Below are positions 16,545 through 62,365 of a stretch of 64,000 bases of DNA, piece by piece. Numbering within the stretch: the stretch's first letter is position 1; each line of letters begins with the position of its first letter. Below the pieces are notes generated by a model. The model saw only the letters and a list, made by a program, of their open reading frames with translations. It searched no databases and had not been told where the DNA came from. The DNA lies in the NCBI GenBank assembly GCA_002245135.1, contig NGBS01001166.1, positions 186,001 to 250,000 of the forward strand. The letters are read 5' to 3'. The DNA comes from Proteromonas lacertae. Its lineage: Eukaryota. Both the position numbers and the translations under genes were made by a program.

Positions 16545-16589
<45 letters not shown>

Positions 16590-20988: not shown

Positions 20989-21801
20989 ATGGAACTGTAT
21001 GAGTTAACTCCACCATTATGGGATGAAATAAAGAGCCGATTGAATCCTTCAGAATGGACTGAGGTACAAAGGATGCTTGGCTTTGATTTGATAAATGAGA
21101 ATCAAGTATTATATCTGCAATATAATTTCTATATTTGTATAGCAATTATATGAAGAAGCGAAATGTTTATTAGATATATTAGGAGAAGCTCAAATACAAA
21201 ATGAAGAATTGAGGGGAAGAGTAACCCAACACTCAATACTAGATGGAGCTGCTAAGTCATATCTAGAAAGACAAATATTAGATTTCATTGATCAGTTCAG
21301 AGTAAGACCAATAGCTCCAATTCTTGAATATCCTTTTTAAAAACAACACTAAAACATCCAGTTCCCTTAATAGAATATACTACTAAAGAAGAAAAGATAG
21401 TTAAATACATACAAAACAAAAATGCTAGTCCATCAAGGCCACAGTCAGCTTTATCTAGACCAGGCAGTGCATTCAGACCAGGTTCAAGTAGATCCTTTAA
21501 TAGTTGTCCTGAGCCTTATGCACCGTTAAGATCTATCTCAAAATCAATAAATGTATATTCTATAGATAAAGTAGCTGATCCATTGAAAGGTCTTTTGAGA
21601 GAAGAACAAGATAGGTATAATGAAGATATAGAGATGTTGAGAGAAGAATTAGAGAATGAAGTGACTTTTAAATGTGAAATTGAATCTGAGAAGAAAGAAC
21701 CATCTATAAAGGATATAAGAGCATTATCTCAGAAGCTGGAGAAGGAATTTAAGAATATTGATAATCCTGCACTTAATAATAACAATAATATTGAAACATG
21801 A
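20989..21801 (+). CDS. CCDC24-like coiled-coil protein (largely missed by the ORF track)
   Basis: MELYELTPPLWDEIKSRLNPSEWTEVQRMLG...L.EE...L.DIL; one GT-AG and one AT-AC intron join it to ORF 21583..21801. Confidence 0.7.
21328..21380 (+). other. U12-type AT-AC intron, 53 nt
   Basis: Canonical ATATCCTTT donor, branch TTCCCTTAAT at 21362-21371, 3' TAC; GA|T restores the frame. Confidence 0.9.
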
Positions 21802-41016: not shown

Positions 41017-43221
41017 ATGGAACAGAATCCAGGTTTTATAGAAGGTTTAAAAGTACCTGATTATCAAAATGAAAAACGTATTTATTTAGTGTTATTGTAA
41101 ATAGAGCAATGCCTGAGTTTTCTAAGAGATTTTACTAGTGATGATCCTGAAACAAAACAGCCAATAAAGAAATATATGAAACAAATTGATTCTATTGCTT
41201 CAAGGGAAAGTTCCAGAGTTCTTATTGAATTAGACGATGTTTTTGCTATGGGTGATGATGTATTACTCGACCACATTGAAAATAACACAAGAAGGTATGT
41301 CAATATATTTGCTGATGCAATTGATGAATTAATTCCACAATCAAATCACATAATCGATAGTACTAGTGATATAGCCGATATTTTGGAAGCACATCGAGCT
41401 TCTTCAGGGGAAGGTGCACAATTGCCAAAATCATTAACACGTAGATACCAAGTAAACTTCAAAGCAAGAAGATCAATCAAACCAAGATCAGTAAGAGATA
41501 TTAAAGCATTAGATATTGGTCATTTGACTGTATTAAAAGGTGTAGTAACTCGTGCATCAGCAGTTAAACCACTAGTCAGAGTAGCTGTCTACACTTGTGA
41601 TGTTTGTGGCTTTGAAATATACCAAGAAGTCGATAGTAGAACATTTTTACCATTAACCGAATGTCAATCACAAAAATGTAAAACCAATAATCAAAAAGGA
41701 GATTTACACTTACAAACAAGAGGTAGTTCCTTTGATAAATATCAGACTGTTACAATACAAGAATTAAGTGAACAAGTTCCAAGTGGTGATACTCCCAGAA
41801 CAATGACATTACAATTACGAGGAAATTTAACAAGAAAGTGTTCACCTGGTAATATTATTACATTTAGCGGTATTTATTTACCAACACCTTATACTGGATT
41901 TAGAAGAATGAAAGCTGGATTAATAGCTGATACATATTTTGAGGTATTAGATTTAGAACAATATATACAGAACTATGAGAATACTGAAATATCGAATGAT
42001 TTAGTTGAAGAAATAAATGAAGCTAAAACTGATTCTAATTTATATGAGAAATTATCTCAATCTATTGCACCTGAGATATATGGTTTATCTGATGTAAAGA
42101 AAGCATTGTTATTACAAATGGTCGGTGGTGTGAGTAGAACAATGTCAGATAAGATGAAAATTAGAGGTGATATTAATATCTGCATGATGGGAGATCCAGG
42201 TGTAGCAAAATCACAATTGTTGAAATATATAGCAAATATATCACCAAGATCAGTCTACACAACTGGTAAAGGTAGTAGTGGAGTTGGTTTAACTGCTGCT
42301 GTGATTAAAGATCCAATTACCAATGATATTGCATTAGAAGGAGGTGCCTTGGTATTAGCTGATAATGGTATTTGCTGTATTGATGAGTTTGATAAGATGG
42401 AAGAAAATGATCGAACATCTATCCATGAAGTAATGGAACAACAAACATTATCTATTGCTAAAGCTGGTATTACAACTACATTAAATGCAAGAACATCAAT
42501 ATTAGCAGCTGCTAATCCAGTAGGAGGTAGATATAATGTTAAGAAAACTCCTCAAGAAAATATTAACTTACCTGCTGCTTTATTATCCAGATTTGACTGT
42601 GTATTTTTATTACTTGATACTCCAAATGCTGAAAGTGATAAATATTTATCTCAACATATATTGCATTTACATCAATATGGAAAAGCACCTGATATTGGTT
42701 TTGTACCTTTTAAACCTGAGTTTTTAAGAGCTTATATATCAGAAGCTAAACAAATATATCCAACCATTTCACCTCAAGTTGCGCCTTATATTATAGAATC
42801 CTATATTCAATTGAGAAAGATAGATAATGAAGCATCTAAAGGAGATAGAGTTAAATCATTGATCACTCCTAGACAATTGTTGTCGATACTTCGATTTGCA
42901 CAAGCATTAGCAAGATTAAGATTTAGTACCACTGTTGAACCACCTGATATTGATGAAGCTGTTAGAATAGTGAGGATGTCAGCTAATAGTAGTGAAGTTG
43001 ATGAAGATAGATCAGCATTTAGAAATGATCCTTCTTCAAGATTGTATAGTTTGATTATTGAGAAAATGAAAGGGACAAATTCTATAAAAATGGCTGATAT
43101 AGAGAATTTTGCTACTTCTAATGGCTTTAGTAAAGAACAATTTGATAATTGTATTAAAAGTTATGAAGATATGGGTATTTGGCAAAGAGCACGTAATTCT
43201 ACTACGCTAGAGCTTGTTTAG
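41017..43221 (+). CDS. MCM7: DNA replication licensing factor MCM7
   Basis: NTRRY, YTCDVCGFEIYQ, MKAGL.ADTY, GDPGVAKSQLL, IDEFDKM and NLPAALLSRFD. Confidence 0.97.
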
Positions 43222-43411: not shown

Positions 43412-46400
43412 ATGAGTTTGTTTTCATTCATTCTGTTTGTTAGTTTAGTTTTAGGTGGTGTAGATGATGCTGTAGGCTATGTGTTTAACAGTCCAGGAGG
43501 ATCATTAGAGCTATATATAACAGAATTTCTTCCATCTCTTGGCTTTAAAGCCCCTGCTTCATTTTATTATGTTACAAGTTCTAATGAGCAAGATTTAGAT
43601 ACAGAAATCGTTAAACTTGCCAAAATCAACAAGAGAGTGATTTTCGGTTATGTTCCCCAATTCAAACCCAGTATAATCAATAAAATTGCAAAAAAGAATT
43701 CTGTCGTTTTTATTACACCAGCAGTATCAACAGAAGACAGTTGCTACAGTAATCTAATTCAAGGGTATTCTGTGTGCAAATCAATTTCAAGAATATTAGA
43801 GTTAATTAAGCATGATTATAAATCATTTACTATCCTTTATGATTCACAATCGAACATTAATAATTGTGCAAATCTAATACATGAGTTTCTAAATTATAAT
43901 TCATATACGAATCCATCTATAACAGAAATTGTTTCTTCCTCAGATATAGATGTTTCTAGTATAAGTAGTGATGATGTAATTTTAAACTTTCTATCAACAT
44001 CATTATCAAATAGCTTATACTCTATTTCACCTCGATCATTTAATATTATTGGATTTCAAAATATCGATATTCAACAGCATGATTTAACAAAAATGACAGA
44101 TACTTATATAGCTAGTGAAAGTAATGATGATTGTGGCTCTATAGACTATGCGACATCATCATATCCATCACCAAATATTGAACAATTTTCACTGTACATT
44201 TATAATTATTTAATTTATATAATTTTCATAGAGGTCAATCACTATTTCTATTTTTAGAGAATGCCAAGAATATTGGATTTAAAGGTCATGTTGATTTACA
44301 CAAATTATTGACATTGACACAATTTTCATTCAAATCATCAACTATTACCTTATTACCAAATCTAAGACTATCTAATAGAATATCACTCTCTAAAATAGAT
44401 AATAGTAATAAATTTATTCCAATACAGAGTATTCCAGGAATTAATGGCATATATTATAGCGATATATTAGATAATCAATATGAAATGATATGTGACATAA
44501 CAAACTACAATGATGAAGTTAAATCAACTGATTATTACGTTATATTAATAACATATTTAACTGGAGATTTATCAAAATATGATTCAAGTGTTAAAACTGG
44601 ATTAAAAATAGCATTAGAAATATTAAACAATGATAATCCAATATTGAACAGAAATACTCATCCAATCTATATGGATGCAAATAGTAATAACTTAAATGAT
44701 GAAATAATTCATTATATTAATTCATTTAATGTTATTGCTATTTATACTACAATGGAATTTACTGATTTTGAAGTATTTACAAATACTGCAAATGAAACAA
44801 TATTTGAAACTCCATTTATATATCTCAATCTAGTACCAAACGAAATAGTGAGTGATAAATACTTCTTAAATGGAATGAATATAGGAAATTTATGGAGAGA
44901 AACTAAAACAGCATTAAATCCTAAAAACATATTCTTTATAGGCAGTAAAGGAACAGTATCAGCAAATGCAATATCTTATATATCCTATGATGCTTCATTG
45001 AATGGAATTAATGTTAGAGGTAGTTATATATTAGATAGTAATACATACGAACATGCTGTAAATGCGTGTAATGAGATTGAAGCAGAATGTAAACTACATA
45101 GTGATTGTTATATTATTACATTTATGGAAAGGAATTATACTTTGAAGTTTTATGAAGAATATAAGATTGCAAGATTAATATATCCAATTGTGTCTTATAA
45201 TTTAGATGAATTAATGATTAATTCTGTTAATAAAACATATGTATAATTATATTTTTCTTTTTATATTGTATTTAGTATGAAAACCATTATGTTATTGGAT
45301 ATTTCTTCAATGAAATGGAACTATCAGATGATGTTGATAATCGATTAAGCGATTACATTAAATCAAATTCATTTTATAAAGATTTTATTGTTACTTCAAA
45401 CACAGCTATTTTATATTCAGAAATAATGCTATTATCATCTGTATATTATTGTATTCTAAATTATATGAATAGGTTATTGATATTACAAGGCAAATATCCA
45501 AAGAAAAGATTAAATATTCAATGAAATATGGTTATGTAATAGGCATAGGAGGTGTAATAAAAGGAAATGATGAAGGATATGCTGATTTTAATGTTCATAC
45601 AGGAAAGATTAGTAATGGAAAGATAGAAGAAATTAGTAAATCATTTTTTGTAGAAGTATCAGCTGTCTTTAGTGATTCAACCAAATATTATGATAGAGAT
45701 TCAAACCAGATTAAAACAAGAGAAGTTAAGACAATATCTTTCTTATATGTGAGAAATGAAAAGAATGAAGATAGAATCAATCATTATGTATTATATGATT
45801 CATTTGTGATTGAATATTTGAATAATCAATACAATGGTGTAGCTGGTTATAGAATAAGAACAGCATTTCCTGAATTATATAGTAATGAAGACTTAAAGAA
45901 TTATGTTCAATCTGTTGCTAATAGTGATGATTTATTGTTATTTGTTGGTACTTTGACTTTTGAAGAGAGAGAATCAATTCAACAGCTGTTGATTGATAGT
46001 AATAAGTTGTTATTGAGTATTCATCCTGCTGTTGGAAATCAATGTTATAGAAATATTATTCAAATATCATTTTTTTTCGTTTATTTTTAGCATTTATCTG
46101 TTTCTATAATTCTAGTTTATTTTGGAGTATTGCCTCAACATTATATATTTACAATTATTGCATATTGGTATAAACACAGTAATAATTGCATTATGATATA
46201 TGGAGATAATGAAGTTAATAAACACACAGCAAATTACACTTTAAAATACACTGAAGAAATAAAGAATTATAAATGTGTTGGTGTATATGTATCAGATAAT
46301 TCAAATCTTACAGAAATCATTGAAAATGAAATTGTCAATAAATATACTGATGGTGCTGCAATAATAACAGCTTTAGATGAAAGAACAGAATCATTTCTAA

Positions 46401-47265
46401 TAGAAATGAGTAATTATAGTAGCAGTAATAATTATCTTTATCCAATTATAATCACTGATTATATTGAATATAAATACTTCGAATTAAAATATAAAGAATA
46501 TTATGAGAACGTTTATTTTACATCATCTTATTCATATCATTTAGATAATGAAGAAACAAGAACAATGTCAGAAACTATTACTAGTTACTATGGCAAATCA
46601 AAAGAACTAATGACAACAACAACACTTACATTATATTCTGCTTTGAGACTATTTACTGAAAGTTATCCAAATAATTATAACAACAACAGCAATGAAATAA
46701 GATATAACATGTATGATACTGTTATTACATCTCCAATGGGTAAGATTATTGTTGATACAAGTAATCTAATGAGAATGTATACAATGATGATTCAGATAAA
46801 GAATAATAACAGTGAAATAATACTAAGTTCTGATTATAGCTATTATGAATCACAATTTGCAGATATTGTATAATTTATCATTATATATATATTAATAATA
46901 GTTTAATAATGAATATTTAACATGTCATTTTGAAGAAGGTTCAATATCTGATGTAATAAAGGAAGAGGTTCAAGAAATAGGTATTTGGCTTGAAGATGAT
47001 GAAAGTGTTAGATTCACAGTTCAAGAATATCTCTATTATAATAAGTTCACATATGGAACTACTTATGTTGAAAAAACAGTATATTGTTCTGATGAAGAAT
47101 CGATATTTAAAATGGTTAATGATAGTTCAATATCATATATACTTTCAACATGTAATAGAACAGTCAATTCAAATATTGCTGAAGTTGCTAATGAGAAGAA
47201 TGTAAATATATTCATTTTAGAAGATCAATATGAACCAATATGTGAAAAGAGATTGTATATAATAT

Positions 47266-47297
<32 letters not shown>

Positions 47298-50200
47298 GAA
47301 ATAGTATGGTATTAGGATCTTCTCCTTCACAAAGACTCATTCCTCTAATTCAATATTTATTTACAGTAGTTGATTCAAATGTATATGTCATTATTCCACT
47401 TGCTTTCAACAATTCAATTGAAATTGATATGATACAAACCACAGTTGATGTAAATGGAGGTAAAGTAATTCAAATCCTATTCATTGATGAAGAAGATGAT
47501 AGTAAAAATGTGGCAAATGAAGTGAAAATCAGTAGTTTAATAGCTTCAATTTATAGAAATGGCAATACAGGTGGTATTATACTCAATTACCTTCATAAAT
47601 ATGATAAATACTTATTTATATATCTTGAAAATATGTTAAAATATCATACGCTTGGTCAAAATGAAAAAGAATCTGAATTTATCATTGTTTCAATGGATAT
47701 TGATAGAATCTTGGATATTGAAAATCCAAAGTTATTGGATAATCATGTTGCTTTAGGTGTGTCATACATAAGTAAAGAAACTAGTAAATTCTTATATGAT
47801 ATAAGTACAAATACATATGGAGAAGGAAATATATTAAAGAAAATAGAATCAAGAGGTTTAATTGCTATTGAATTTATATTAACTGTTAGTGTATTATTAG
47901 AGAATAGTGAAAATCATGATTTCATGGATTATATTCATATCAATGAGATTACCACATCTTTAGGAAATATTAGAATTGATTATGATAATTATTTTCCTTC
48001 AATAGTTTCCATATATGTTGCAAATACTACAAATATATTACATATAAGATATGTTTTATCCAACCAATGGCCTGGTGAAACTTATAGAATAACTTATCAA
48101 AATATCACATTATTTCCTTTTTGTGATGTTACAAATAAGAATAAAATTCAAGATAGATTGTCTATTAATGTCATTCTATTTGTTCCATTGCCAAGTAATT
48201 ATAAATTAGAAGGATATAGAATGTTACTCTCTTACTTATCAATAATTGATTATATTAACAAAAACTACAGAGTTAATGGGTTATATATAAATCCAATCGT
48301 TATTGATACAAAGGGAGGGTATGAAATAGTTAGAGAGGTATTATCAAAGATGTCAATAGAATATAACACCAAAATAGCATTGGGAATTGATAATAGTTTG
48401 AATAGGAAAGAAATAGCAAATGAATTAGATGATTATGATGTATTATTAGTATATCCAAATGATTTTGAAGGATATGAATGCAAAGAGAATATTATATACG
48501 TTGGAGTTCCATTTGCAGCTAAAGTAACTTACTTACCATGGATCTTAGGTCATTTAAATAACAAAATTTATGTTGTTTATACAGATTCATATGATAATGA
48601 TGTTATTTCTAAAATGATTAGTCATGAGTTGAATTTAAGAGGATATTCTATTGTTGGTATTTCAAAAGTACCAGAAACTAATTATATACTAAAAGAAGTG
48701 GTCAATATGGTACATATGAAGATGAGAAATGGTGGTGTAATATTATCATTCTTAAAAGGAAATGCAGCTAAAGAATTATACAAAGCATGTTATGATGAAG
48801 ATATTAAATATCCAAATTACTATATTATAAGCGATAATTTGAATGTAGCAAATATAAATAATGATGAAGGAGTGTATATGATGAATCATTATATATGGAA
48901 TACTTATCCTGAAGAGTATTATGATGTGGAAGAATATGTTAATGTTTATAACAACAAGTATACATTCATTACAAATCATACAACTAGTTTCGTTCCTGCA
49001 TTTCTTTCTGTTAAAATATTAGCATTAGCATTTCAACATATTACATTCAATGAGAATTATTCTTCTGCTTTTACAGTTGATTCTATTCTCAATAAAGTTC
49101 ATAATGTTTCAACATCACAGATTAAAATATATAACAACAATTTCGCATCTTTTACTTTGAGTATAAAACAGATTAAATATAATGAAACTTCAAAACAGTG
49201 TTATGGAGATATAATCTATAAATATCAATCAAATTCAGAACCAAATCCTTGGGCATCTACTTACAATCTAAATGGTAAATTTATATGTGATTGGAATGAA
49301 TCAAATCCAAATAAAAATGAAACAATTCCAGTGGATGCTGTTTCAATTGCATTAGTATTTCCATTAAGTGATCTGGAATTAGGTAGTTATGCAACTGATA
49401 TATTAGAATCAGCCATATCAACATTATCTGAAATAAATGATAAAAATGGAGGTGTTAATGGTTTGTATATTGATTACATTGTTTTTGATTATAAATATGA
49501 AACTGAATCAATACTAACTAAGATTGCTTATGATATATTAGAGAATGAAAATATTGTGTCTGTTTTTGGATGTTTGAGTGAAACTTGTAAGAATATTATT
49601 TCCAGTATATTGCAACAGAAATCAATTTCATTATGGTATCCAGGAACAGCATATTGTCTCAGATATGATATCTAAAATTGGTAATATAAGAACAGCAGTA
49701 TTCTTTTATTTAAGTGGATCTTTATCATCATCAGTTTTACATGAAATAGAAAATCAAGGTATTAGTTTATCTACAGTTAATCTAATTCTAATGAGATTTT
49801 CAAAAGCTGATTATTCAGATGAATTATTGATGAAATTATCAGGAGCTTTAATACCAGCAACTTATTCTTCAGATTTATCAAGTCCATTAGCAAGATCATT
49901 TCAATCAGATATGAAAGGTGGATTAGGAAATACAGTAGAAATACCAGAAGAAATGGAATATGTATATTCAGCCTTGCATTTATGGAAAAATAGTTTAGAA
50001 ACTAGTATAAAAGACAGTGGAGGTGATATAAACCCGCCAATTGAATATATTCGATTGAATATGATTGATAAAACATTTACATCTCCATCTGGTCCAATGA
50101 TCTTAGATAAAACATTATATGTAAAGAGAAGTATGTATGTATTTAGAGTTAGTGATGATGGTAAATTTATTCAAATATATCCAAAGACAGGATCAACTGT

Positions 50201-51469
50201 ATTATATGATCCAATTCCATATCCAGATGGTGTTCCAGCAGAATGTAATTTTGGTAAAAAGAAAGTATATTTTGAATATAATACCATGATGAAAGCTGTT
50301 GCTTATGTGTTAATGAGTATTGCAATAGTTTTATCATTTTGGTCATTGTTATTCACATATGCATCAAGAAATAAAATGATTATTAAATCATTTGGTAGAT
50401 CTTATAGTTTTATATTTGCAGTACAGTTGTTGATACTATCATTAGCAGTAATACCAATGGCAATTGCACCAACTAAAAGTAATGGGATTTGCACAGCAAG
50501 AGTTGTATTCTTAGGTTTATGTGTAAAAGGAGTGTTAGGTTTAATGATAGCTAAATGTATGAAAATATATAACAGATATAGAAGATTGAAAAGAAACATT
50601 AAAAAGAGTAGAATAAAAATGGTTAGATTATTATTTACTTGGTTGTTTTTTGAATTATTAGAATCATTAATATTGATATTGTGGTTTACTTTAGATCCAA
50701 ATGAATATGAAGAAACGTATAGTCAATCTCTCAGTGGTTATTTTTTCGATGAGTATATTAGAGAATGTACTACATCAACTCCATTTTTGTATATAATATC
50801 TATTATATATTTCATGAATATATTTCTAGAATCGTTGAATTTATTACTGATGGAATTCCATTAATAATTCTGTTATATATCACTAATGTAATAAAGAATA
50901 AAATTAATGATCATAATGAAGGAACAGCAATGTTTATTTCTAGTTGTGTGATATATATCTTTTTTTCATTAACATTTATCTTGTTATTAGCTTCATCTTA
51001 ATGTTTTTTACCTGTTTTTGGTGTTGTTATGACTGTATTAGATTTTTATGTTAATTCAGAACCTAATACTGTTTTGTTATTAAGAGCAATGGGAATTGAA
51101 ATTACTCAAATTTTAATGATTATGTTACAATATGGAAATATCTTTTTTTTTACACAATTTTCTTAATGATGTTATTTAATTCTATTGTTTACTAAAAATG
51201 ATTAATGTTTATATTGATGATGATTCAAACAGAATAACACAATCAGGCAGCCAAGCAAGTAAAACTGAAAAGAAATATCCTTTTCATATCTTATTCATCC
51301 TATTTATTTTCTTAATTTATTCAATCTGTTAGATTCTTCCCATCATTCTTCTAACTCTCAAAACAAAACTCAAACCTCTACATTCCTTACATCACACATG
51401 AAATCTATGTTTACAACATCTACATTAAATGCAATTACAAAAAATCAATCATCAAGGAAGTTGTTATAA
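43412..51469 (+). CDS. Giant class-C-like 7TM receptor with about 6 tandem AmiC/UrtA-like periplasmic-binding (Venus flytrap) domains
   Basis: Signal peptide MSLFSFILFVSLVLG; repeated motifs such as EIN..NGGVNG, VFGC.S, YPNDFEGYECKENIIYVG and F.SPSG; C-terminal hydrophobic helices with C..R, L...K..KIY and HNEG; frame break at about 49640. Confidence 0.75.
51138..51192 (+). other. U12-type AT-AC intron, 55 nt
   Basis: ATATCTTTTT donor, TTTTCTTAAT and TTATTTAAT branch candidates, 3' TAC; gives QYGIKMINVY at the end of the last TM helix. Confidence 0.8.
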
Positions 51470-51523
51470 TAATTGTTTTATTTTTATTATTTTTAGTATT
51501 AAACACACAAAATAGTCAAATAA

Positions 51524-54500
51524 CTATTTAATATTATAAAAATGGTTTGATAATTCTTTCTTTAATTCTTTACCAATTCCATCTATTGTTATTGATTTAA
51601 GTGATGAAAACGATTTTAAAAACGATACTAATTCTAATTTATCTATCTCTTCTTTTATTGTTATTGTTAATAGACTTAAACATTCAAACACTTCTTTGTC
51701 TTCTGTCATCAATCTTAATTCTTCTTCATTTAACTTATTTCCTGATAGATTTATCTTCTGCAATGGCTTATGAACTTTTAATCTTTCTATTAACATTTTT
51801 AATCCTCTTTCACTCATTCCTATATCTATTTCAATTAAAAAACTATGTTATATTCATAAAATACTTGAAATATTTAATATTAATGAATAATTATCATCAA
51901 TAAATTTATCAAAATTTTCACAAATAATCTCTATTCCTTCATCTCCAATTGGATTGTTAAATATTGAAATATAATTTAAATCTTTTGGTATAGATTGAAT
52001 TAATTCTGATAATCCTTTATAACTGATATGATTATTGGATAAATCAAGTGTTTCATAATCAATCTGTTTTATGATGGGAATGTGAGAATCATTGATATTT
52101 AAATCTATTGCATTATATACCTTGATTTAATACTGGATAAATCATAGTATTTATACATATCACTTTTTTTAGTACAATAGTCTAGATAATACTCCAATTC
52201 TTTATTTTTCCAAGATGAATTTTTCATCTGAATGAACGGATATTCTTCATTTTCTAACGATTTTGAACATATTGATTTTAATCCATTCATTTTGATATTA
52301 TTCTCATTGAGATTAATTACATTACACTCTCCAATTAAATATAATATATCTGTAAACATTACGGCACTTTCATCATTTATTGATGTATTACTCAAATTAA
52401 GATCACTGTCTATCATTATATCCAACTTCTCTTCCAACAATTTTAATCCAATATTACCAATCGGATTATCTATTACACAGAATAATAAAGATTATATAAC
52501 AATATATATATATATATATATATACTGTTAATAATTAATTGTTCAATATTATCATTCTCTTTCACATAATTCATTAAATAATCTATACCTTTTGAATCAA
52601 TATTATTATCAGCTAAATCAAGTACTTCAATCTTTTCATCAGCAATTCTTAAACCATCAACTAAATATTTCATTCCTAATGACGATAATCCCATTTCTAT
52701 AAAACATTTATAAAACAACAAACTATACTCGAACAATTCAGATAACTTCCTAATAAATGGATATGCAGAGATAAAATTCTCATTCCTTCATCTCCTATTT
52801 CATTTTCATATAATTGAAGTTCTTTTAGATTTGGAAATGAAGATAAATTGTTTATCAGTATTTCTACACTTTCACATGTCAGATTATTATCTAAACAAAT
52901 GGAAATTTAAAAACATACAACTCAAATCTAACACTTCTATTTCTTTAAATTCATTTAATCTTAAAGTAATGAATGATTTGAAAAAATCATCATTAATTCC
53001 ACAATGATTCAGATTTAATCCATTATTTTTGTATTTGACAAATTTAATTAACTCTGGAATATCTTTGTCAATCAACAATTCTTTATTTCTTCCATAAATA
53101 TCAAATACTATTTTTGAAATAGAAAATTTTGAGAATACTGCTTTTAATCCACTAGAATAAATATCCCAGTTGTATGTAATATTTATTTTCTTTAGATTTG
53201 GATATTTAAATAACTCTTCTGATAATATTATCATTGATTTATCATTTAAATTCATTCCACAAAGATTCAATTCATTCTTGTCATTTATTAATAAATGAAA
53301 TATGGAATTAATAATTTGAATCCTATTGGACCAATTGGATTATCTATTTCATAATAATCAATACAAATAGAAAAAAATCAATACATTCAAGATTTACATA
53401 TTTAAGTTTCATAAATGGAATTGATTTTACAAATGATTCTATAAAACGATATGTAAGATTACAACTACATAAATTCAACTCTTGCAGATTTGATATTTGA
53501 TTATATAATGCTCCAAATAAAGGCTGGTATCTGATCTGAATATCAAGAATTTCTAAACAAGTAAATAATACTACAATAATACCAAATTTTAGTTTTTTAA
53601 AATTGGATAGTTTTAGTAATCTAAAAAAATAATCCATCCCTTCTTCACATAAACAAACACAAAGTTTATTAGCAATGACTCTTTCATTTAAATAATGAAG
53701 AAGGAGATTGAAAATCATTTCATCTAAACAACAAATCTTGTTTTCTTTGTTTTTGTGATAAATTTGAAATTTCAGTTTATCTTTTATTGATTCATCTCTT
53801 TTGATTAGTTTCATCATTAATAATATCGATAATATTCTATCATTTGGTTTATTGTTGTAAGATTCAATCAAACCATCTCTCATTAATTCATTCTTATTAT
53901 ATTCTATATAATAGTCTCTTTGAGTATCTAATGGAGTTATTTCTAGTAAATAATCATTATTGAAGAATGTATATTTTCTTTCATTATATATCATTATATT
54001 ATTATTTTCATCTCTAAATATTTCACTCACTTTTATCATTTCTTTTCTCAACTCTTTTAAACTCAATCTTTCTTCATTCTTCACATTCAACATTCTCTCC
54101 ATCATCTCTTCCATCATATCATCACATTCTACATCTATACGATATTTACATCTCAGAATTTTATTCAGTGTTCTGTTGATATTATTATCTTCATTAAATG
54201 GTAATTTTTTGTTTATCATTTCATATAATATACAGCCAATAGACCAAATCACACTTTTATCATTACATTCTAATCCATTCAATTCTTCAGGGCTTTTGAA
54301 GCAGATATCATATAATCTTATATCTTCTTCTTTTCTCAATGTGTTTAAAAACAAATCACAGATCTTTATTTCACCTTCACTTTCATATACTATGTTACTA
54401 CTCTTCAAATTGTTTATTATTACATCATATTCACTCAATACCACTAATATATCACATATTGAACATATAATAGCACAAATATCACCAGTTATCAACGAAT

Positions 54501-55996: not shown

Positions 55997-58900
55997 ATGA
56001 ACCCTTTCATCCCTCCTTATTATTATTATTCAAACTTTAATTATTATAGTCCACCACCATTTGGAGCACCTTATATTCCTCCTCCACAAAATTATGGATT
56101 TAATCCCATGCCCATGCCATATCCAGGTATGGCACCTCCTAATATGTATGAACCACCTCCACCTATTCAAAATATTCCAGTAGTTAGAAATTATGTTCCA
56201 CCAAGAAATCTAGTTACAAATACAAATCCTGGTTTCAATTATTATCCTGGAAATATAGGAGTAGATTCAACACCTCAAATTAATATTCCTGAACCAGGAT
56301 TTGTAACACCACCTCCCAAGAGAAGATTAGATTTCGAAAACATAAGTCCTCCAAAAATACAAAGAAAAGGAGGTATGCAGGTTCAAATGCCTAATCCAAA
56401 TCCTAATCCAAATCAACCTGTTGTTGTTGTTAATCAACCTCCACCAAATGCACAACAGCGTAATAGAGTAGCTGATTTAAATTTATCTTATCAAGAAGAA
56501 AGAGATTTAAGAGAAGCAAGTGATATATTAGAAAATCATCCTACTAAATTATTAAAATTACCATATGAAAAGAGATTATATTATATGGACTTAATTCAGA
56601 GAAGTACAGATAATTATAGTAGAACATATCAAATTAACTTTTTAAATGATGTAAATGGTAAAGATCCAGATGCTGTTGTTGAAATTATAACTGATCCTAG
56701 TAGCCCATTAATTACTAAAATAAGAGAATATTTAGAAGATGTTAAATATATAAAAGTAACATTAAGTTTTAGAAGTGGTTATATAGGAGCAGACGATCCA
56801 GATTATAATAATCCAAATGGTAATAAAATTACAAATTGGGTATTCTTAGAATGTAGACCTGTAGTTATTACAGAATCAGAAATGAATGTTGCACATAAAA
56901 TATTAAAAGATAGAATAAGAACAGAAATGGGACCTTTATGGCATACTGAAAAATCAAGTTTAAAATTTAGACATGTTGGTGAAGTTGAAGTTCAATTAGT
57001 CAAAGCAACTGCTATGGCAGGTAGTGGTAAAAATAAAGAACTTCCAGATTGGATTAGAAATAGAAAATGTGTTATATCAATAGATAATAATAAAGAAAAT
57101 GATCAATTATGTTTTCTATATGCTATAGCAGCAGCATTTTTTCATGGTAATAATAATAATAAGAATTTAAATAGAGTAGAACAATATAAAGAATATATTA
57201 GAGTTAACTACAATTATAGTATGTTATATTTCCCAGTAGATCCTATAAAACATAAAAAACAAATTCATGAATTTGAAACAATAAATCATATAACATTAAA
57301 TATATTCAAAATAACAGATAAAGAAGTAGTTCCAATATATGTAACACATATAGATAAGTTCAATAATTATCCACATGTGAATTTATTATATAATGATAAA
57401 CATTATTCTACTATTACAAAATTAAATGTAATATTAATACCTAAAGGAAAGAAGTGTAAAAATGGTTATCCTAGATGTAATTATTGTTTTGCTTTATTAT
57501 CAACAGATGAAAAAAGAATACAACATGAAAAATATAATTGTCAACAACATAAAGGTATTATAAGAAATTTCCCTGAGAAAAATATTCAATTAGAATTTAA
57601 GAACTTTAAATATATGCAACTAATACCTATAGTAATATATTGGGATACTGAAGTTTATCAGGAGAAAGTAACAGATCCAATTTTAAATGAGAAAGGTATT
57701 TTATCAAAGCATATATTATCCAGTTGGTGTTTATATGTTGTATCAAAATATCCTAATATATATCCTAATAAAATTGAGTATGATTTTAAAACACCTAAAG
57801 ATAATGAAACAGATTTAGAGGATAGATTAATAGCTAAATTTATGGAAATACAAAAAGAAATATTAGATTTATATGAAGAAAAATTAAAAAATCCTGAAAA
57901 AATGATAGGATATAATAGAGAAGATCCTAAAAATAAATTGAATTATTGCATATACTGTAAAGAACCATTTGATTATAGGAATAAGAATAAGAAACCTGTT
58001 TTACACCACGACCACTTTAGTGGACAATATATAGGTAGAATATGTAATAATTGCAACTTCCATGTATGTTTAAATAATATGCCAATCCCTTGTATTGCTC
58101 ATAATTCCAAAAATTATGACAATAATTTCATTATTAGAGGATTGTCCAGATGGGATAATAAGTTAAGAGATGAATTTTGTAAAGAAAATAATATTGATCC
58201 TAATGTAAATTATGCTTCAGATACTGAATCTGATAGTGATACTGAAGAAGAAGATAATACTAGTTATACTAATTCTATTCCTGTTCCACATCAAGATAGT
58301 GATACATTTACTCCATTACCTCCTTATACTAATGGCTTTATAACAGCAAATAAAATAAAAGATTATGTGAAAAATTTAAGAAAAGAAAAACAAGAAGAAA
58401 AAGATGATAATAATAATTTCAGTATGAGTCCATTACATGATTCTTTAAGTGATATGGAAACTCAAGAAGCTGAAAGTGAAGTAATCCAAATTAATAATGA
58501 AGAAGTTAATGCATTGTTAGAATTAGAAGAAATGTTAAGAAGAGATAGTCCTAGAAATGCAGAAGATGTTATAGATGAAATAGATGAACAATCTGCTTAT
58601 AGAATTATTAAATGTAAAGATGGTAAAATAAGAAAATATAAAAACAAAAAACAATATAAATCACAATTATCAGTATTACCCAAAACAGATAATAAATTTT
58701 TATTAATAAAGTTCAACAAATTATACTTTATGGACTCTTATCAATTCTTACCAAGTTCTTTAGATTCTTTAACAAAGTCATTATATACTCAAGCAAAAAG
58801 AGATAATGGAAATTATCAAAAATATTTCAGTTATGTATATGAAGATATTTATAAAAAATATTCTGCTCCTGGTAAATTGGATCATGATATGAATATTGAT

Positions 58901-60913
58901 GCTTTTATCCATAAATGGTGTTTATCTAAAGGATATTTTCCATATGAATATGTAGATTCATTATCTAAATATTTTAATACTTTTGAACTACCTCCTAAAG
59001 AAGCATTCTATTCAAAGTTAAAAGATGATAATACTGTAACAGATGTTGAATATGCTAGTTGTCAGGCTTTATGGAAAGTTATTAGATGTGATAACTTAAT
59101 GGATTACAATTTATTTTATCTCAGATTAGATGTTCTTACATTAACATGTGTATTTGAACATTTTAGAGATGTTATATGGAATAATTTTACTTTAGATCCA
59201 TTATGGCATTGTAGTTCACCTGGTTTATCTTGGAGTATATTCCTTAAAAATTGTGATGTAAAAATTGATTTAATAAGTGACTCTGATATTTATGACTTTA
59301 TACATTCTGGATTAATAGGTGGGATTTCTATGGTTGGTAGTATGAGATATGCAGAGTCTTGGAATCATTATCAACCTCAATGGCAAGAGAAAAATAAAAA
59401 GGAAGTACAGGATCCAGATAATCAAACATATATTATGTATATGGATTATAATTCTTTATATCCAAGTACTATGGCTAGCATGAAGTTACCATATAGTGAA
59501 TTTGAATGGATTGAACCAACTACTGAAAATGTAAAGAAAATATTATCATTACATTACTATGAAGAACAAAGAGAAAAATATTACAATACAGAATGGATTA
59601 ATAAAAATATGTATGGATATATTCTAGAAGTAGATATTTCTCCTCCTAGTAATAGTAATGAAAGAAAAAAATTTGCTGAATATCCTTTGTTACCTGAAAG
59701 AAAAATAGTTGACTATGATAATTTATCTGAAATACAAAAGAAATGGGCAGAGTCTTTAGGATTAGTTTCAGAAGTTAAAAATAATATTGATAAAACATAT
59801 AAAGTTAAAAAGTTAAAGTCAAATGTTCCTAAAATAGTATGTGATTTAACAACAAAATACAACTATGTTGTTCACTATCAATATTTGAAATTTGCATGTG
59901 AAATGGGTTATGTTATACATCATATTCATAGAATTATCAGATTTAAAGAGTCTAATTATGCACATAACTTTGTAATGATGAATCATAACTTAAGAAGACA
60001 AGCTAAATTAGAAGGAAGGGATGCCGATGCTGATACTTTTAAGCTTATTCTAAATAGCGCTTATGGAAAGACATGTGAAAATACTGAGAATAGATGTACC
60101 TCCAAATTGGTTAATAATGAAGAAGACTTTTTACAGTGTACTTCCAATCCATTTTATAGAAGTTTTATTGCTATAGATAATAGTAACTTACGTATATGCA
60201 AATTTCAAAAATATAAATGCACTATTGATAAACCATCTTATATTGGTATGAGTATATTATGTGAATCTAAAAGGTTAATGGCTCAGTTCTGGTATGGACA
60301 TTTATATAGGAAATATGGGAGTAGTTTAAGATTATTGATGAGTGATACTGATAGTTTCATATTTATGGTTCAAACTAGAGATTTCTATATGGATATTATG
60401 AACGATCCACATTTTGAAAAGAAAGTTGATACTGGTAATCTTAATAAACAATACTTAATAACTAGAGGTATACACTATTCAAATGTTAATCAAAGTTCAG
60501 AACTTAACTTATTAAAAATAGAAGAAAATAAGAATGGTTTATACTCTATTACTAGATTTGCAGGATTAAAACCTAAAATGTATGCCTATGAAAAAGTAAG
60601 AGTAGACGATGATATACATTGTGTTACACATGATAGTAGAGCTAAAGGAGTTACAACTGGATATAGAATTAAAACTTGTGATTTTGACTTTTATAGAAAA
60701 ATATTAACAGATGCTGAAGATGAAAAGTCTTACAGAGTAGATAAAATCAAACAATATAGTTTCAGAAGTGTTAACCAAACTTTATATACTATGGAACAAA
60801 ATAAGTTGGCTTTTAGCATATTTGATTCTAAAAGGTATTATTTAGATGTTTATCATAGTATTCCTTTTAATGATTATTATCCACCTATTATTAATAACAC
60901 TACTAATGTTTGA
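55997..60913 (+). CDS. polB: Protein-primed family B DNA polymerase (Polinton type), 1638 aa
   Basis: ExoI WDTE, ExoII HNSKNYD, KGYFPYEY, ExoIII YLRLDV, motif A DYNSLYP, motif B KLILNSAYGK, motif C SDTDS and LKPKMY. Confidence 0.95.
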   Translation: MNPFIPPYYYYSNFNYYSPPPFGAPYIPPPQNYGFNPMPMPYPGMAPPNMYEPPPPIQNIPVVRNYVPPRNLVTNTNPGFNYYPGNIGVDSTPQINIPEPGFVTPPPKRRLDFENISPPKIQRKGGMQVQMPNPNPNPNQPVVVVNQPPPNAQQRNRVADLNLSYQEERDLREASDILENHPTKLLKLPYEKRLYYMDLIQRSTDNYSRTYQINFLNDVNGKDPDAVVEIITDPSSPLITKIREYLEDVKYIKVTLSFRSGYIGADDPDYNNPNGNKITNWVFLECRPVVITESEMNVAHKILKDRIRTEMGPLWHTEKSSLKFRHVGEVEVQLVKATAMAGSGKNKELPDWIRNRKCVISIDNNKENDQLCFLYAIAAAFFHGNNNNKNLNRVEQYKEYIRVNYNYSMLYFPVDPIKHKKQIHEFETINHITLNIFKITDKEVVPIYVTHIDKFNNYPHVNLLYNDKHYSTITKLNVILIPKGKKCKNGYPRCNYCFALLSTDEKRIQHEKYNCQQHKGIIRNFPEKNIQLEFKNFKYMQLIPIVIYWDTEVYQEKVTDPILNEKGILSKHILSSWCLYVVSKYPNIYPNKIEYDFKTPKDNETDLEDRLIAKFMEIQKEILDLYEEKLKNPEKMIGYNREDPKNKLNYCIYCKEPFDYRNKNKKPVLHHDHFSGQYIGRICNNCNFHVCLNNMPIPCIAHNSKNYDNNFIIRGLSRWDNKLRDEFCKENNIDPNVNYASDTESDSDTEEEDNTSYTNSIPVPHQDSDTFTPLPPYTNGFITANKIKDYVKNLRKEKQEEKDDNNNFSMSPLHDSLSDMETQEAESEVIQINNEEVNALLELEEMLRRDSPRNAEDVIDEIDEQSAYRIIKCKDGKIRKYKNKKQYKSQLSVLPKTDNKFLLIKFNKLYFMDSYQFLPSSLDSLTKSLYTQAKRDNGNYQKYFSYVYEDIYKKYSAPGKLDHDMNIDAFIHKWCLSKGYFPYEYVDSLSKYFNTFELPPKEAFYSKLKDDNTVTDVEYASCQALWKVIRCDNLMDYNLFYLRLDVLTLTCVFEHFRDVIWNNFTLDPLWHCSSPGLSWSIFLKNCDVKIDLISDSDIYDFIHSGLIGGISMVGSMRYAESWNHYQPQWQEKNKKEVQDPDNQTYIMYMDYNSLYPSTMASMKLPYSEFEWIEPTTENVKKILSLHYYEEQREKYYNTEWINKNMYGYILEVDISPPSNSNERKKFAEYPLLPERKIVDYDNLSEIQKKWAESLGLVSEVKNNIDKTYKVKKLKSNVPKIVCDLTTKYNYVVHYQYLKFACEMGYVIHHIHRIIRFKESNYAHNFVMMNHNLRRQAKLEGRDADADTFKLILNSAYGKTCENTENRCTSKLVNNEEDFLQCTSNPFYRSFIAIDNSNLRICKFQKYKCTIDKPSYIGMSILCESKRLMAQFWYGHLYRKYGSSLRLLMSDTDSFIFMVQTRDFYMDIMNDPHFEKKVDTGNLNKQYLITRGIHYSNVNQSSELNLLKIEENKNGLYSITRFAGLKPKMYAYEKVRVDDDIHCVTHDSRAKGVTTGYRIKTCDFDFYRKILTDAEDEKSYRVDKIKQYSFRSVNQTLYTMEQNKLAFSIFDSKRYYLDVYHSIPFNDYYPPIINNTTNV

Positions 60914-60997
60914 AACTTTTATATTTCTTTTTATTATTATATTTTTATATTATTATTATTTCTTTTGTTTTCTTTATATTATAAAAAATAAAAAATA

Positions 60998-62365
60998 ATG
61001 TATTTCGGATGGGATCCTGCTAAAGCATTTTTTAATACTATGAATGATGTAGGTAACTTAATGGATAAAAATATACAACATTTACCTAAACAACCTAAAT
61101 ATCCTGAATCATTGCAATATTATATGAATTATGGTAGAGATGGTATACCTAGAGAACCTCCTACTACTGACTATAAATTATATCCTAATCCTGAATATTC
61201 TCAATATCAAAATCGTTTACAACAACTATATAATAAATATCATTATTTAAGTGATAGAGATTTTATTAAAATGGTAATGAATCCTGCAGATAATAATGAA
61301 GTACCACCACCTATAGATGCTATAAAAGAATTTTTAGCTAGACAACCTGGTCATCAAATAGTAGACTTTCAGTATAAAAAGGATAATCCTTTCGTTAGTA
61401 TTAAAAAGCCTGGTTGGTTCCAGATGGATATAGTTTATTTTTTACCTGAAACACATCATCTGTATTTTATTGAAACTAACTCTCGAAAAGTATGGGTAGT
61501 ACCTTTGAAAAGAGAAGATGGAAATACTTGTTTAAATGCTTTCTTTTCTTGGTATTATAAAGAAGATCAAGAAGCTTTTTTAAATCCAAACTATCAACCT
61601 AATATAGTAGCTAAAAGAAGAGTTATTAGTATATTAAGTGATCAAGATGATAGTTTTAATAAAATAAAAGAATTTTGTGATACAGAAGGTATAAATACTT
61701 ATCAAAAAAATCCTTCAGAACATAGAATAATGAGTGTATTAGATAGAAGTGTATCTATGGTTAAAAAACTATTATATAAACATCTTGTTGAAATAGACTT
61801 TCCTGATCCCTTTCGTTATAGAAATCAAACTCATGCTAAAAGCTTTCCACCTAGTGCATATATGAATCAGTGGCTTACTAACTTTAATCATGAAGTATAT
61901 AAAGTAGTACAAGACTATAATAATAAACCTCATCCTGCATTAAAAGGATATACTCCTAATGAAGTATATCATTCTGAATTACTACAGAAAAGAGTATTAG
62001 TTGAAAGCATAAATAAAAATGTAGATAATGAATTTAAACTAGAAGATAAACAACGATTTAAAGTAGGCGACTATGTTAGATTTAAAGAAAGAAGAAGACA
62101 ATTAGATAAAATAACTACTTGGAGTGATGATGTTTATATGATTATAAATAAGTTTAGATTTTCATATCAAATAGGTGATACTAATGGTAACTTTGTACCT
62201 AATGTTAGTAATCAGAGGTTTAAGCATTATGAATTAGAATTAGTAGAAAGAGCGCAAGATAGAAATGCTTATTTTAGAGCGTATCAAGCAAACAGAAGAT
62301 TTTATAATCAACATTTTAGAAAAACATTAAAAAGACCAGGACTCAAAAGAAAGGGAATAGTATAA
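60998..62365 (+). CDS. Retroviral-like (rve) integrase of Polinton type, 455 aa
   Basis: FQMDI, ET.SRK.W..PLK, ILSDQD, LDRSV..VK, YNN.PH..L.G.TP and an SH3-like FKVGDYVR...WSDDVY.I. Confidence 0.92.
   Translation: MYFGWDPAKAFFNTMNDVGNLMDKNIQHLPKQPKYPESLQYYMNYGRDGIPREPPTTDYKLYPNPEYSQYQNRLQQLYNKYHYLSDRDFIKMVMNPADNNEVPPPIDAIKEFLARQPGHQIVDFQYKKDNPFVSIKKPGWFQMDIVYFLPETHHLYFIETNSRKVWVVPLKREDGNTCLNAFFSWYYKEDQEAFLNPNYQPNIVAKRRVISILSDQDDSFNKIKEFCDTEGINTYQKNPSEHRIMSVLDRSVSMVKKLLYKHLVEIDFPDPFRYRNQTHAKSFPPSAYMNQWLTNFNHEVYKVVQDYNNKPHPALKGYTPNEVYHSELLQKRVLVESINKNVDNEFKLEDKQRFKVGDYVRFKERRRQLDKITTWSDDVYMIINKFRFSYQIGDTNGNFVPNVSNQRFKHYELELVERAQDRNAYFRAYQANRRFYNQHFRKTLKRPGLKRKGIV

Follow-up and report, generated by a model that had tools for sequence, protein, structure and literature searches.

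Does a single receptor gene carry several minor-class (U12-type) introns, some of them with non-canonical ends, and were these acquired recently, as a first-pass annotation of the locus proposed? The gene occupies positions 43412-51469 on the forward strand of a 64-kb stretch of Proteromonas lacertae DNA (the whole of which we call the window), and its reading frame is broken by short stretches that begin with ATATC. Both sequence anatomy and homology support their assignment to the U12 type, and we put at roughly 0.78 the probability that the gene carries four short introns with U12-type signals that are likely excised by the minor spliceosome. The annotation's "two or three" was an undercount, since it missed the one at 50955-51011.

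The receptor gene

The gene was delineated from a chain of open reading frames (ORFs), Pfam matches and the ESM Atlas, and ten introns are predicted in it. It has a signal-peptide-like start (MSLFSFILFVSLVLG), about six periplasmic-binding-protein (PBP) repeats, a seven-transmembrane (7TM) domain and a Ser/Thr-rich tail. The ORF at 47300-49672 matches Pfam Peripla_BP_5 with 105 bits and Peripla_BP_6 with 59.5 bits, two further ORFs have weaker periplasmic-binding-protein matches, and the ORF at 49578-50861 matches 7tm_3 (PF00003) with an E value of 6.4e-19 and 69 bits (cut-off 33.5). In the ESM Atlas, GABA-B receptor subunit 2 is the cluster that comes nearest (score 0.95). With both a 7tm_3 domain and Venus-flytrap (PBP/ANF) domains, the predicted product is class C GPCR-like. 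It resembles class C GPCRs of the GABA-B/metabotropic type in its 7tm_3 domain and PBP-type extracellular domains, but those receptors have one PBP domain where this one has about six in tandem (and its 2300-3700-residue relatives have more). The 7TM region, TM1 through TM7, lies at 50274-51210 according to the 7tm_3 match (residues 233-416 of the 49578 ORF) and the homologue alignment; it is split by three introns, and TM6 and TM7 are recovered only once the putative AT-AC introns at 50955-51011 and 51138-51192 are taken out.

The coding sequence is not continuous and intact. At 49647-49675 the 47300 frame stops (49673-75) and the 49578 frame continues; tblastn with P0001, the closest homologue, places its residues 1-743 at 47429-49654 and residues 1979-2360 at 49647-50792 in another frame, and about 1235 residues (about 3.7 kb) of P0001 are absent at this point, out of frame. 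The gene may therefore be a pseudogene, may have suffered a real deletion or may be misassembled and, because it may be a pseudogene, in-frame stops alone are weak evidence for introns in it.

Ordinary introns

Six of the predicted introns are of the ordinary GTAT...TAG kind and are 32-50 nt long. They lie at 44194-44231 (38 nt, GTACAT...CATAG), 45241-45275 (35 nt), 45441-45472 (32 nt, phase 0, GTATAT...AATAG as read from the sequence), 46868-46901 (34 nt; the ORF of a relative, P0221, ends by running into it, ...SDIVY), 47255-47304 (50 nt, containing a (TAT)n run) and 50789-50829 (41 nt, after TM5), all on the forward strand. The position of the last is common to paralogues or relatives: ORFs P0001, P0069, P0003 and P0079 each end a few codons past ...STPFL or ...S[IV]FL, at the site of this intron.

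In the window as a whole there are 44 GT-AG candidates of the form GTAT...TAG with donors GTAT[A/T/G]. A at +3 and T at +4 are found in 43 of the 44, the exception being the 47255-47304 intron, which had been entered as 47263-47305; as a comparison set they are partly circular, in that the picking score rewards GTA and YAG and so shapes the consensus. One ordinary intron, at 27462-27488, contains TCTTAAT.

Four candidate ATATC introns in the receptor gene

The first of the four candidates, at 46064-46120 (57 nt, phase 0), would be an AT-AT intron with donor ATATCATTT, a branch-like TTTCTATAAT at 46101-46110 whose A lies 11-12 nt from the end, and a terminal AT at 46119-20. Its excision would remove an in-frame TAG (46088-90) and yield NIIQ|FGVLPQ, the junction that the first-pass annotation had given. 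The second, which had escaped notice, is an AT-AC candidate at 50955-51011 (57 nt, phase 1) with donor ATATCTTTT and a branch-like TCTTAAT at 50996-51002, its A 10-11 nt from the end; an in-frame TAA (50999-51001) would be removed with it. The third, at 51138-51192 (55 nt, phase 1), was correctly placed from the start: its donor ATATCTTTT has a single mismatch (+6T) to ATATCCTTT, it ends in AC at 51191-92, and its branch point could lie in either of two motifs, TTTCTTAAT at 51159-67, which is 26-27 nt from the end, or TTATTTAAT at 51172-80 (13-14 nt). No AG is read anywhere in 51140-51230, so the third intron has no GT-AG alternative.

The fourth, at 51275-51324 (50 nt, phase 2), has a perfect donor ATATCCTTT, the branch TTTTCTTAAT at 51307-16, and a putative AA end at 51323-24 with the branch A 9-10 nt upstream; no GT-AG or plausible GC-AG pair could be read that joins the frames on either side of it. 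The donor, the branch, the AA end that restores a long frame and the AG that gives a short tail are all as the annotation placed them. The AA end is the weakest point of the model, since its branch distance is at the short edge and a valid AG lies at 51331-32. With that AG the intron would be a 58-nt AT-AG intron and the protein would end with KFFPSFF-stop (...SKTEKKFFPSFF-stop), or both ends might be used. The AG is 17-18 nt from the branch A, within the U12 range; among the non-canonical U12 types of Physarum, AT-AG is the most frequent (29%) in the available part of the preprint describing them (10.1101/2020.10.12.336362); and BLAST of the two tail frames gave no clear winner. On the other hand, the AA end enters a frame of 66 codons (51269-51469) that is open in DNA where stops are frequent, and the tail it predicts after QYGIK is Ser/Thr-rich and 73 residues long (33 with the AG end), compared with 84, 64 and 67 residues in the homologues P0002, P0004 and P0006. 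The other five ATATC introns in the window have branch distances of 10-15 nt, nearer to 9-10 than to 17-18. We therefore retain the AA end for the fourth intron and regard use of the AG as the less likely outcome, though one with a real chance of being correct.

Candidate ATATC introns elsewhere in the window

Two unrelated genes in the window have similar introns. A Myb-domain gene has a U12-like AT-AC candidate at 12734-12794 on the forward strand (61 nt, phase 2; ATATCTTTT...TTCTTTAAC...AC), in which the branch-like motif is at 12772-80 and its A is 15 nt from the end. A coiled-coil gene has what looks like a textbook U12-type AT-AC intron at 21328-21380, also on the forward strand (53 nt, phase 2; ATATCCTTT...TCCCTTAAT...AC), with the branch at 21363-71 and its A 10-11 nt from the end; without it, a 65-codon ORF runs on into an open frame of 139 codons. 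The window thus has six ATATC introns, four in the receptor gene and two in unrelated genes, beside about 44 GT-AG candidates. Because they recur in two unrelated genes and the ordinary introns are sharply different, the organism probably has a working minor spliceosome; minor introns may also make up an unusually large fraction of its introns, and those in this window are all of the AT subtype.

Splice signals and the spliceosome involved

All six introns start with ATATC[C/T/A]TTT. The extended U12 donor ATATCCTTT is exact in two, and the other four differ from it only at +6, three with T (ATATCTTTT) and one with A (ATATCATTT). In each, the A of a TTAAT/TTAAC branch-like motif is 9-15 nt upstream of the 3' end (counting the nearer of the two motifs in the 51138 intron), and the motifs (TCCCTTAAT, TTCTTTAAC, TTTCTTAAT, TTATTTAAT, cATCTTAAT, TTTCTATAAT) resemble the U12 branch site TTCCTTAAC, which is expected about 10-20 nt from the end and with no long pyrimidine tract, although TTAAT-like motifs are frequent by chance in DNA of about 27% G+C and a loose scan also matched many antisense and coding sites. 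The termini, four AT-AC, one AT-AA (the inferred end) and one AT-AT, are U12-type combinations. The interiors are dissimilar, with z below 2 in all 15 pairs among the six.

In the mechanism we propose, U11 and later U6atac would pair with the extended ATATC donor, U12 would pair with the TTAAT-type branch motif, and the position of the 3' cut would depend chiefly on how far it lies from the branch, which would allow AC, AA and AT ends all to occur. The annotation's suggestion of relaxed 3' ends fits these data, the AA and AT ends being at the usual branch distance, but this is a known property of U12 introns and need not be special to the lineage.

Alternatively, the major (U2-type) spliceosome, or a single hybrid machinery, could take out real introns of this kind, if the GTAT...TAG consensus tolerates A at +1 with C, A or T as the last letter. 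U2-type AT-AC introns are rare but exist in animals, and hybrid U2/U12 snRNA features are present in some protists. The ordinary donors GTAT[A/T/G] are only two letters away from ATATC, and five of the six ATATC introns end in TA-N, in parallel with the ordinary TAG. A search for U11, U12, U4atac and U6atac, one of the checks that the annotation had recommended, returned no Rfam match in the window, whether at the gathering score or with the E limit relaxed to 1, but a stretch of 64 kb is so short that failing to find snRNA genes in it carries no weight. Against removal by such a machinery, C at +5 is present in 6/6 ATATC introns and 0/44 GT-AG candidates, and this C together with the four T's at +7 to +10, again in 6/6, is the hallmark of U11/U6atac pairing. 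Two of the donors are the perfect 9-mer, TCCCTTAAT is a near-canonical branch 10 nt from an AC end, and the ATATC introns form a separate length class (50-61 nt; the GT-AG candidates span 24-51 nt). It thus seems improbable that the major or a hybrid spliceosome removes them, and removal by the minor spliceosome is the reading we prefer.

The 9-mer ATATCYTTT alone is not enriched in the window (13 occurrences against 8.79 +/- 2.79 expected; 9 of 100 shuffles reached 13). Donor and branch motif together match twice against 0.33 expected, and a wider pattern, chosen after the sites had been seen, matches six times against 1.3 expected (1 of 200 shuffles reached six). Five of the 13 ATATCYTTT sites coincide exactly with a break in a long reading frame that afterwards picks up again, and each of the four receptor ATATC stretches falls exactly at such a break. 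The weight of the case is on these frame breaks and on the homologue gaps described below, not on motif enrichment.

Homology and age of the introns

The predicted spliced product is without a stop, and TM5 through TM7 align gaplessly to 7/7 homologues after removal of the two AT-AC introns. Without the 50955 intron the protein reads ...ISSCVI|S|VFGVVMTVLDF, with no gap relative to the seven homologues where tblastn leaves one of 19 residues, and without the 51138 intron LQYG|I|KMINVY matches LQYGIKIGNVY of P0002 and LQYGIKGILIF of P0006. The stretches at 46064, 50955 and 51138 correspond exactly to homologue gaps of 57, 57 and 55 nt. At the 46064 site, P0004 has NIIYFGRYPQ without the 19 codons (such homologues are taken as transcript-like from ORFs that nearly fill their contigs), as does the receptor's own internal repeat 5 (CKENIIYVGVPF).

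A comparison of intron positions with a relative (the annotation had recommended one among paralogs) bears on age. P0221, that relative's genomic ORF, has 77% protein identity and carries an insert of 18 diverged codons at this codon, between NILQ and FGVLPQ. The flanks there are 85-89% identical and the 18-19-codon insert only about 37%, with a length difference of one codon; the P0221 insert still begins with ISF and finishes with Y. Because the ends are conserved and the interior has diverged, the 46064 intron does not appear to be a very recent gain, and by this alignment at least this one is older than the split from P0221. The annotation's idea of recent U12 intron gain is thus not supported at 46064, the intron to which this comparison applies.

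Another reading is that the stretches are pseudogene lesions (short insertions and nonsense mutations), or that the 46064 stretch is a coding hydrophobic insert that gained a stop in this genome. The out-of-frame gap relative to P0001 is consistent with decay, the 46064 stretch is open and in frame in P0221, and two of the four stretches have lengths divisible by three. Random insertions would not, however, share the same ATATC start and the same finish, a branch-like motif followed after 9-15 nt by a terminal A-N; the 51138-51192 and 51275-51324 stretches shift the frame, yet the downstream frame is open and homologous; and similar stretches interrupt two other genes whose flanking ORFs are intact. 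The 46064 insert evolves far faster than its flanks, and homologues and the receptor's own repeats are without it. We consider lesions very unlikely. Least probable of all are ordinary GT-AG introns combined with sequencing errors, either 46079-46115 with a homopolymer error (the annotation's own alternative, 37 nt and out of frame) or 46044-46115 (72 nt, GT-AG and in frame as read): the eight consecutive T's at 46070-77 might conceal an indel, but the donors would be GTTT, which is absent from the GT-AG set, and GTTA, against the nearly invariant +3 A and +4 T (the one exception being mis-entered), the 72-nt intron would cost the protein CYRNIIQ, a segment conserved in P0221, P0004 and the receptor's own repeats, P0221 carries 54 extra nt at this very codon, and the 51138 intron has no AG to use.

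Comparison with known minor-intron systems

In animals and plants, U12-type introns have the 5' splice site [A/G]TATCCTT and the branch TTCCTT[G/A]AC, in the portion of the Physarum preprint that covers them (10.1101/2020.10.12.336362). The window's six introns are like these in their ATATCCTTT-like donors, branch near the 3' end, lack of a long pyrimidine tract and AT-AC ends. The AT-AA and AT-AT ends are known variants, the commonest non-canonical U12 types in the accessible text of PMC10639083 and the same preprint. Clustering in one gene is shared as well: the annotation's premise that U12 introns are mostly one per gene needs the caveat that they are known to cluster in the same genes, as the available part of PMC7367187 has it. 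The window's introns differ in being all of the AT subtype, with no GT-AG U12 type, in being only 50-61 nt long, in donors that depart at +6 (T or A) in 4/6 cases, and in their crowding, with a single gene holding four, three of which fall inside 370 nt. Locally, 6 of about 50 introns appear to be of this class, compared with less than 0.5% in animal and plant genomes; minor introns are usually below that figure, old and slowly lost, and Physarum is the sole known massive gain according to the part of PMC10639083 available.

In Blastocystis sp. subtype 1, AT-AC accounts for 77% of the minor introns, 49% of them are in phase 0 and their median length is 39 bp (PMC10639083, available part). It is like the window in its predominance of AT-AC, its very short minor introns and, in our comparison, its compact genome with short introns. 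Its minor introns are mostly phase 0, whereas only one of the window's six is, and the window's G+C content of about 27% counts as a further difference. For the MCM7 protein encoded in the window, identity to named relatives does not exceed 55%, which provides no link to Blastocystis.

Physarum polycephalum has over 20,000 U12-type introns and, in the accessible part of the preprint (10.1101/2020.10.12.336362), shares with the window a high density, frequent +6T donors ([A/G]TATCTTT), numerous one-letter end variants (AT-AG, AT-AA, AT-AT) and minor introns in young, lineage-specific genes. Its branch is a transformed TTTGA 9-12 nt upstream and its U12 introns are mostly GT-AG, in contrast to the TTAAT/TTAAC motifs and uniform AT-AN ends here; the terminal inverted repeats proposed there (rtatctt...aagATAT) were not found in the window's six introns. 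GT-AG-only gene finders will break or truncate genes of this kind, and the receptor's closest homologue in the public protein collection ends at the first intron after TM5, without TM6, TM7 and the tail. It is possible, though we hold this only tentatively, that the minor-intron load of this lineage approaches that of Physarum (several percent of introns), mostly AT-A[C/A/T] with classical branches, and would represent a second independent massive enrichment that includes young lineage-specific genes. Such a second minor-intron-rich lineage, exemplified by a young receptor gene with four of these introns and AA and AT ends among them, would provide an independent system for studying how minor introns are gained, why the AT-AC subtype dominates some compact genomes and how the 3' site is selected.

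Architecture of the receptor gene and its relatives

The window is eukaryotic (~27% G+C, standard stop codons) and gene-dense, with very short introns, and the analysis reported here rests on sequence anatomy and on how the encoded proteins compare with those in public assemblies. The receptor gene is a chain of open frames on the + strand that runs from an ATG at 43412 to a stop at 51467–51469 and begins with the signal-peptide-like MSLFSFILFVSLVLG. Of six receptor ORFs scanned with Pfam, three carry Peripla_BP_5/6 (periplasmic-binding-protein, PBP) domains, two of them above the family cut-off, and 7tm_3 lies on 49578–50861 (69 bits); in the ESM Atlas the nearest proteins to the 7TM piece are GABA-B receptors. 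An exhaustive HMMER search of 1.84 billion representatives (E up to 0.001) turned up just 68 relatives, and all eight of the relatives' clusters that were looked up are Logan assemblies. Together with the small number of relatives, the Pfam and ESM Atlas matches identify this as a putative class C GPCR gene whose architecture has many repeats and is confined to a poorly sampled lineage. The adjoining MCM7 gene (41101–43218) has one match at 88%, and its named matches (plants, fungi and oomycetes) are all at 55% or below.

The closest homologues, P0001 and P0069, are 71–77% identical to the receptor, and each is one uninterrupted ORF of 2367–2395 residues in a relative. By tblastn, the receptor in the window lacks their residues 744–1978 (~1235 residues); the two sides of this gap, which do not share a frame, meet at 49647–49675, a junction that is out of register with the PBP repeats. 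The gap resembles a genuine frame-shifting deletion (a pseudogene) more than a collapsed repeat, and the likely readings of the break are an out-of-frame deletion of ~3.7 kb, a pseudogene or an assembly fault.

At its other end, the receptor stop lies ~54 nt from that of a convergent leucine-rich-repeat gene on the − strand (51469–51524), so the 3′ ends of the two genes must be very short or overlapping. The leucine-rich-repeat gene (51524–52787 and beyond) has GT-AG introns of its own, 28–39 nt long. Farther along the + strand, a single 1638-codon ORF (55997–60913) carries a protein-primed DNA polymerase B domain (DNA_pol_B_2, E 8.4e-18) and is adjoined by a 457-codon ORF (60992–62365) that matches no Pfam family; together these are possibly a Maverick/Polinton-like or related mobile element.

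Ordinary GT-AG introns

Across the window, 44 GT-AG candidates were collected on both strands from ORF junctions; they are 24–51 nt long with ~15% G+C. GTAT occupies positions +1 to +4 and TAG the terminus in 43 of the 44, a consensus partly built in by a scoring that rewarded GTA and YAG; the exception is a mis-entered row (47263–47305, correctly 47255–47304). C at +5 occurs in none of the 44. The receptor gene holds six of them, all on the + strand: 44194–44231, 45241–45275, 45441–45472, 46868–46901, 47255–47304 and 50789–50829. ATATCCATC at 44161 was considered as a fifth U12 intron of the receptor, and the GT-AG intron 44194–44231 is preferred there. Several ordinary introns contain (TA)n or (TAT)n runs, for example 16545–16595 and 47255–47304.

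Putative minor-class introns near the receptor C-terminus

The first-pass annotation had proposed two or three minor-class introns in the receptor gene, at 46064, 51138 and 51275. The sequences at all three sites are as it described them, and the presence of U12-like introns in this gene is borne out; the number was too low, as a fourth candidate lies at 50955–51011. The intron at 51138–51192 (+ strand, 55 nt, phase 1) has the form ATATCTTTT...AC; the stretch 51140–51230 is devoid of AG, which leaves no GT-AG solution for it. The additional intron at 50955–51011 (+ strand, 57 nt, phase 1) has the form ATATCTTTT...TCTTAAT...AC, with TCTTAAT at 50996–51002, and its removal takes out an in-frame TAA at 50999–51001.

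Scripted splicing of the C-terminus, with 50789–50829, 50955–51011, 51138–51192 and 51275–51324 removed, gave a stop-free product whose TM5–TM7 segment aligns with zero gaps to all seven homologues compared (P0002, P0004, P0006, P0012, P0015, P0017 and P0018). At the 50955 junction the spliced ISSCVI-S-VFGVVMTVLDF lies over ISSIVIIVLGAIMVLLDF of P0002, and at the 51138 junction LQYG-I-KMINVY lies over its LQYGIKIGNVY; tblastn likewise places a 19-residue gap in the homologues at 50955–51011. The other in-frame 3′ ends (AT at 51002 and AT at 51180) would add three to four residues that are found in no homologue. In several of the aligned homologues the ORF takes up almost the whole contig (3012 residues on contigs of 9.4–9.6 kb in five assemblies, for instance), from which we infer that these homologues are transcript-derived. 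A search with the 79-residue ORF 50762–50998 for a relative's version of the three C-terminal introns returned no match, and a single-protein scan of metagenome DNA of relatives gave 238 pattern matches, none of them confirmed.

The last intron, at 51275–51324 (+ strand), has a perfect donor, ATATCCTTT, a branch-like TTTTCTTAAT at 51307–51316 and a predicted AA end. The sequence holds no GT-AG pair that links the frames of 51180 and 51269; the GC-AG pairs that do so (donors 51247 and 51250 only) have poor donors and would break up the conserved SGSQ. From a donor at 51275, 50 nt is the only length with an A-N end that enters the 66-codon frame. The AA end gives a Ser/Thr-rich tail of 73 residues, against 64–84 in the closest homologues, and the rival AG end at 51332 gives one of 33 residues. 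BLAST of the tail frames against homologue tails yielded 19–21 bits for all three frames, and motif-based cutting of the tails was noisy. The 3′ end of this intron is probably the AA at 51324.

The putative intron at 46064 is shared with a relative

The intron at 46064–46120 (+ strand, 57 nt) has the form ATATCATTT...AT, and its removal takes out an in-frame TAG at 46088–46090. In receptor repeat 3 the site reads CYRNIIQ, 19 codons and FGVLPQ; repeat 5 of the same gene reads CKENIIYVGVPF, and the homologue P0004 reads NIIYFGRYPQ. Two GT-AG introns were considered here, and both fail: 46079–46115, which the first-pass annotation had named as the outcome that would overturn its reading, is out of frame with a GTTT donor, and 46044–46115 would delete the conserved CYRNIIQ.

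P0221, a 414-residue ORF on a relative's genomic contig (77% identical), is open through this site as NILQ-ISFLFILFLIFSLISISY-FGVLPQ. Its flanks are 85–89% identical to those of the receptor, whereas the insert is ~37% identical and one codon shorter. The insert still opens with ISF, which is compatible with ATATCATTT, and closes with Y, encoded by TAT or TAC. Such a diverged insert between conserved flanks is what an intron would show that has kept its position while only its termini are under constraint, and it argues that the 46064 intron is common to the receptor and this relative and is not a very recent gain. The suggestion of recent U12 intron gain is thus unsupported at 46064, where it is testable.

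A few codons past the same conserved Cys, an intron interrupts both PBP repeat 3 and PBP repeat 4: in repeat 3 the AT-AT intron 46064–46120 follows C+6 in phase 0, and in repeat 4 the GT-AG intron 47255–47304 lies in codon C+4 in phase 2. The two positions are close and not identical.

The ATATC introns as a class

Two further ATATC introns lie outside the receptor, at 12734–12794 in a Myb gene and at 21328–21380, of textbook type, in a coiled-coil gene. The six are 50–61 nt long, in phases 0, 1, 1, 2, 2 and 2; all have C at +5, T at +7 to +10 and A at −2, and carry a TTAAT/TTAAC-type motif whose A is 9–15 nt from the 3′ end. Ciliate-type, TA-bounded DNA elimination at 21328–21380 would excise 49 nt from TA to TA, not 53 nt, and break the frame. 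An introner or transposon origin is disfavored by interiors that are unrelated (z below 2 in all 15 pairs) and by the six sequences, in which neither terminal inverted repeats nor TA duplications were seen; there is no sign that a single element spread in a recent burst.

The donor 9-mer ATATCYTTT occurs 13 times in the window, against an expected 8.79 ± 2.79, and so is not enriched; eight of the 13 are not at introns, being antisense to genes or within long ORFs. Loose branch motifs are also common. What carries the case for U12 introns is that motif, geometry, frame break and homologue gap coincide. U12-type identity is likely, and we put its probability at a little under 0.8.

The window holds six ATATC introns to ~44 GT-AG candidates in 64 kb, or two to ~38 without the receptor gene. 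By our arithmetic, at a rate of 0.5% the probability of at least two in ~45 introns is ~0.02, which hints at a high genome-wide share, as judged from a single window flagged for these very introns. An Rfam scan of the 64 kb gave no match at gathering score and no minor snRNAs; the sole match at E up to 1 is a weak SNORD27-like C/D-box snoRNA at 8779–8846 on the − strand (32.9 bits against a gathering score of 52; E 0.092).

Comparison with known minor-class introns

A full-text literature search found no paper on a lineage with these intron features. The commonest non-canonical U12 ends are AT-AA and AT-AT (PMC10639083; 10.1101/2020.10.12.336362), and U12 introns cluster in genes (PMC7367187). 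Blastocystis minor introns are described as 77% AT-AC, their median length being 39 bp (PMC10639083), and Physarum as having over 20,000 U12 introns, frequent +6T donors and a TTTGA branch (10.1101/2020.10.12.336362). The ATATC introns combine traits of these parallels with classical branch motifs.
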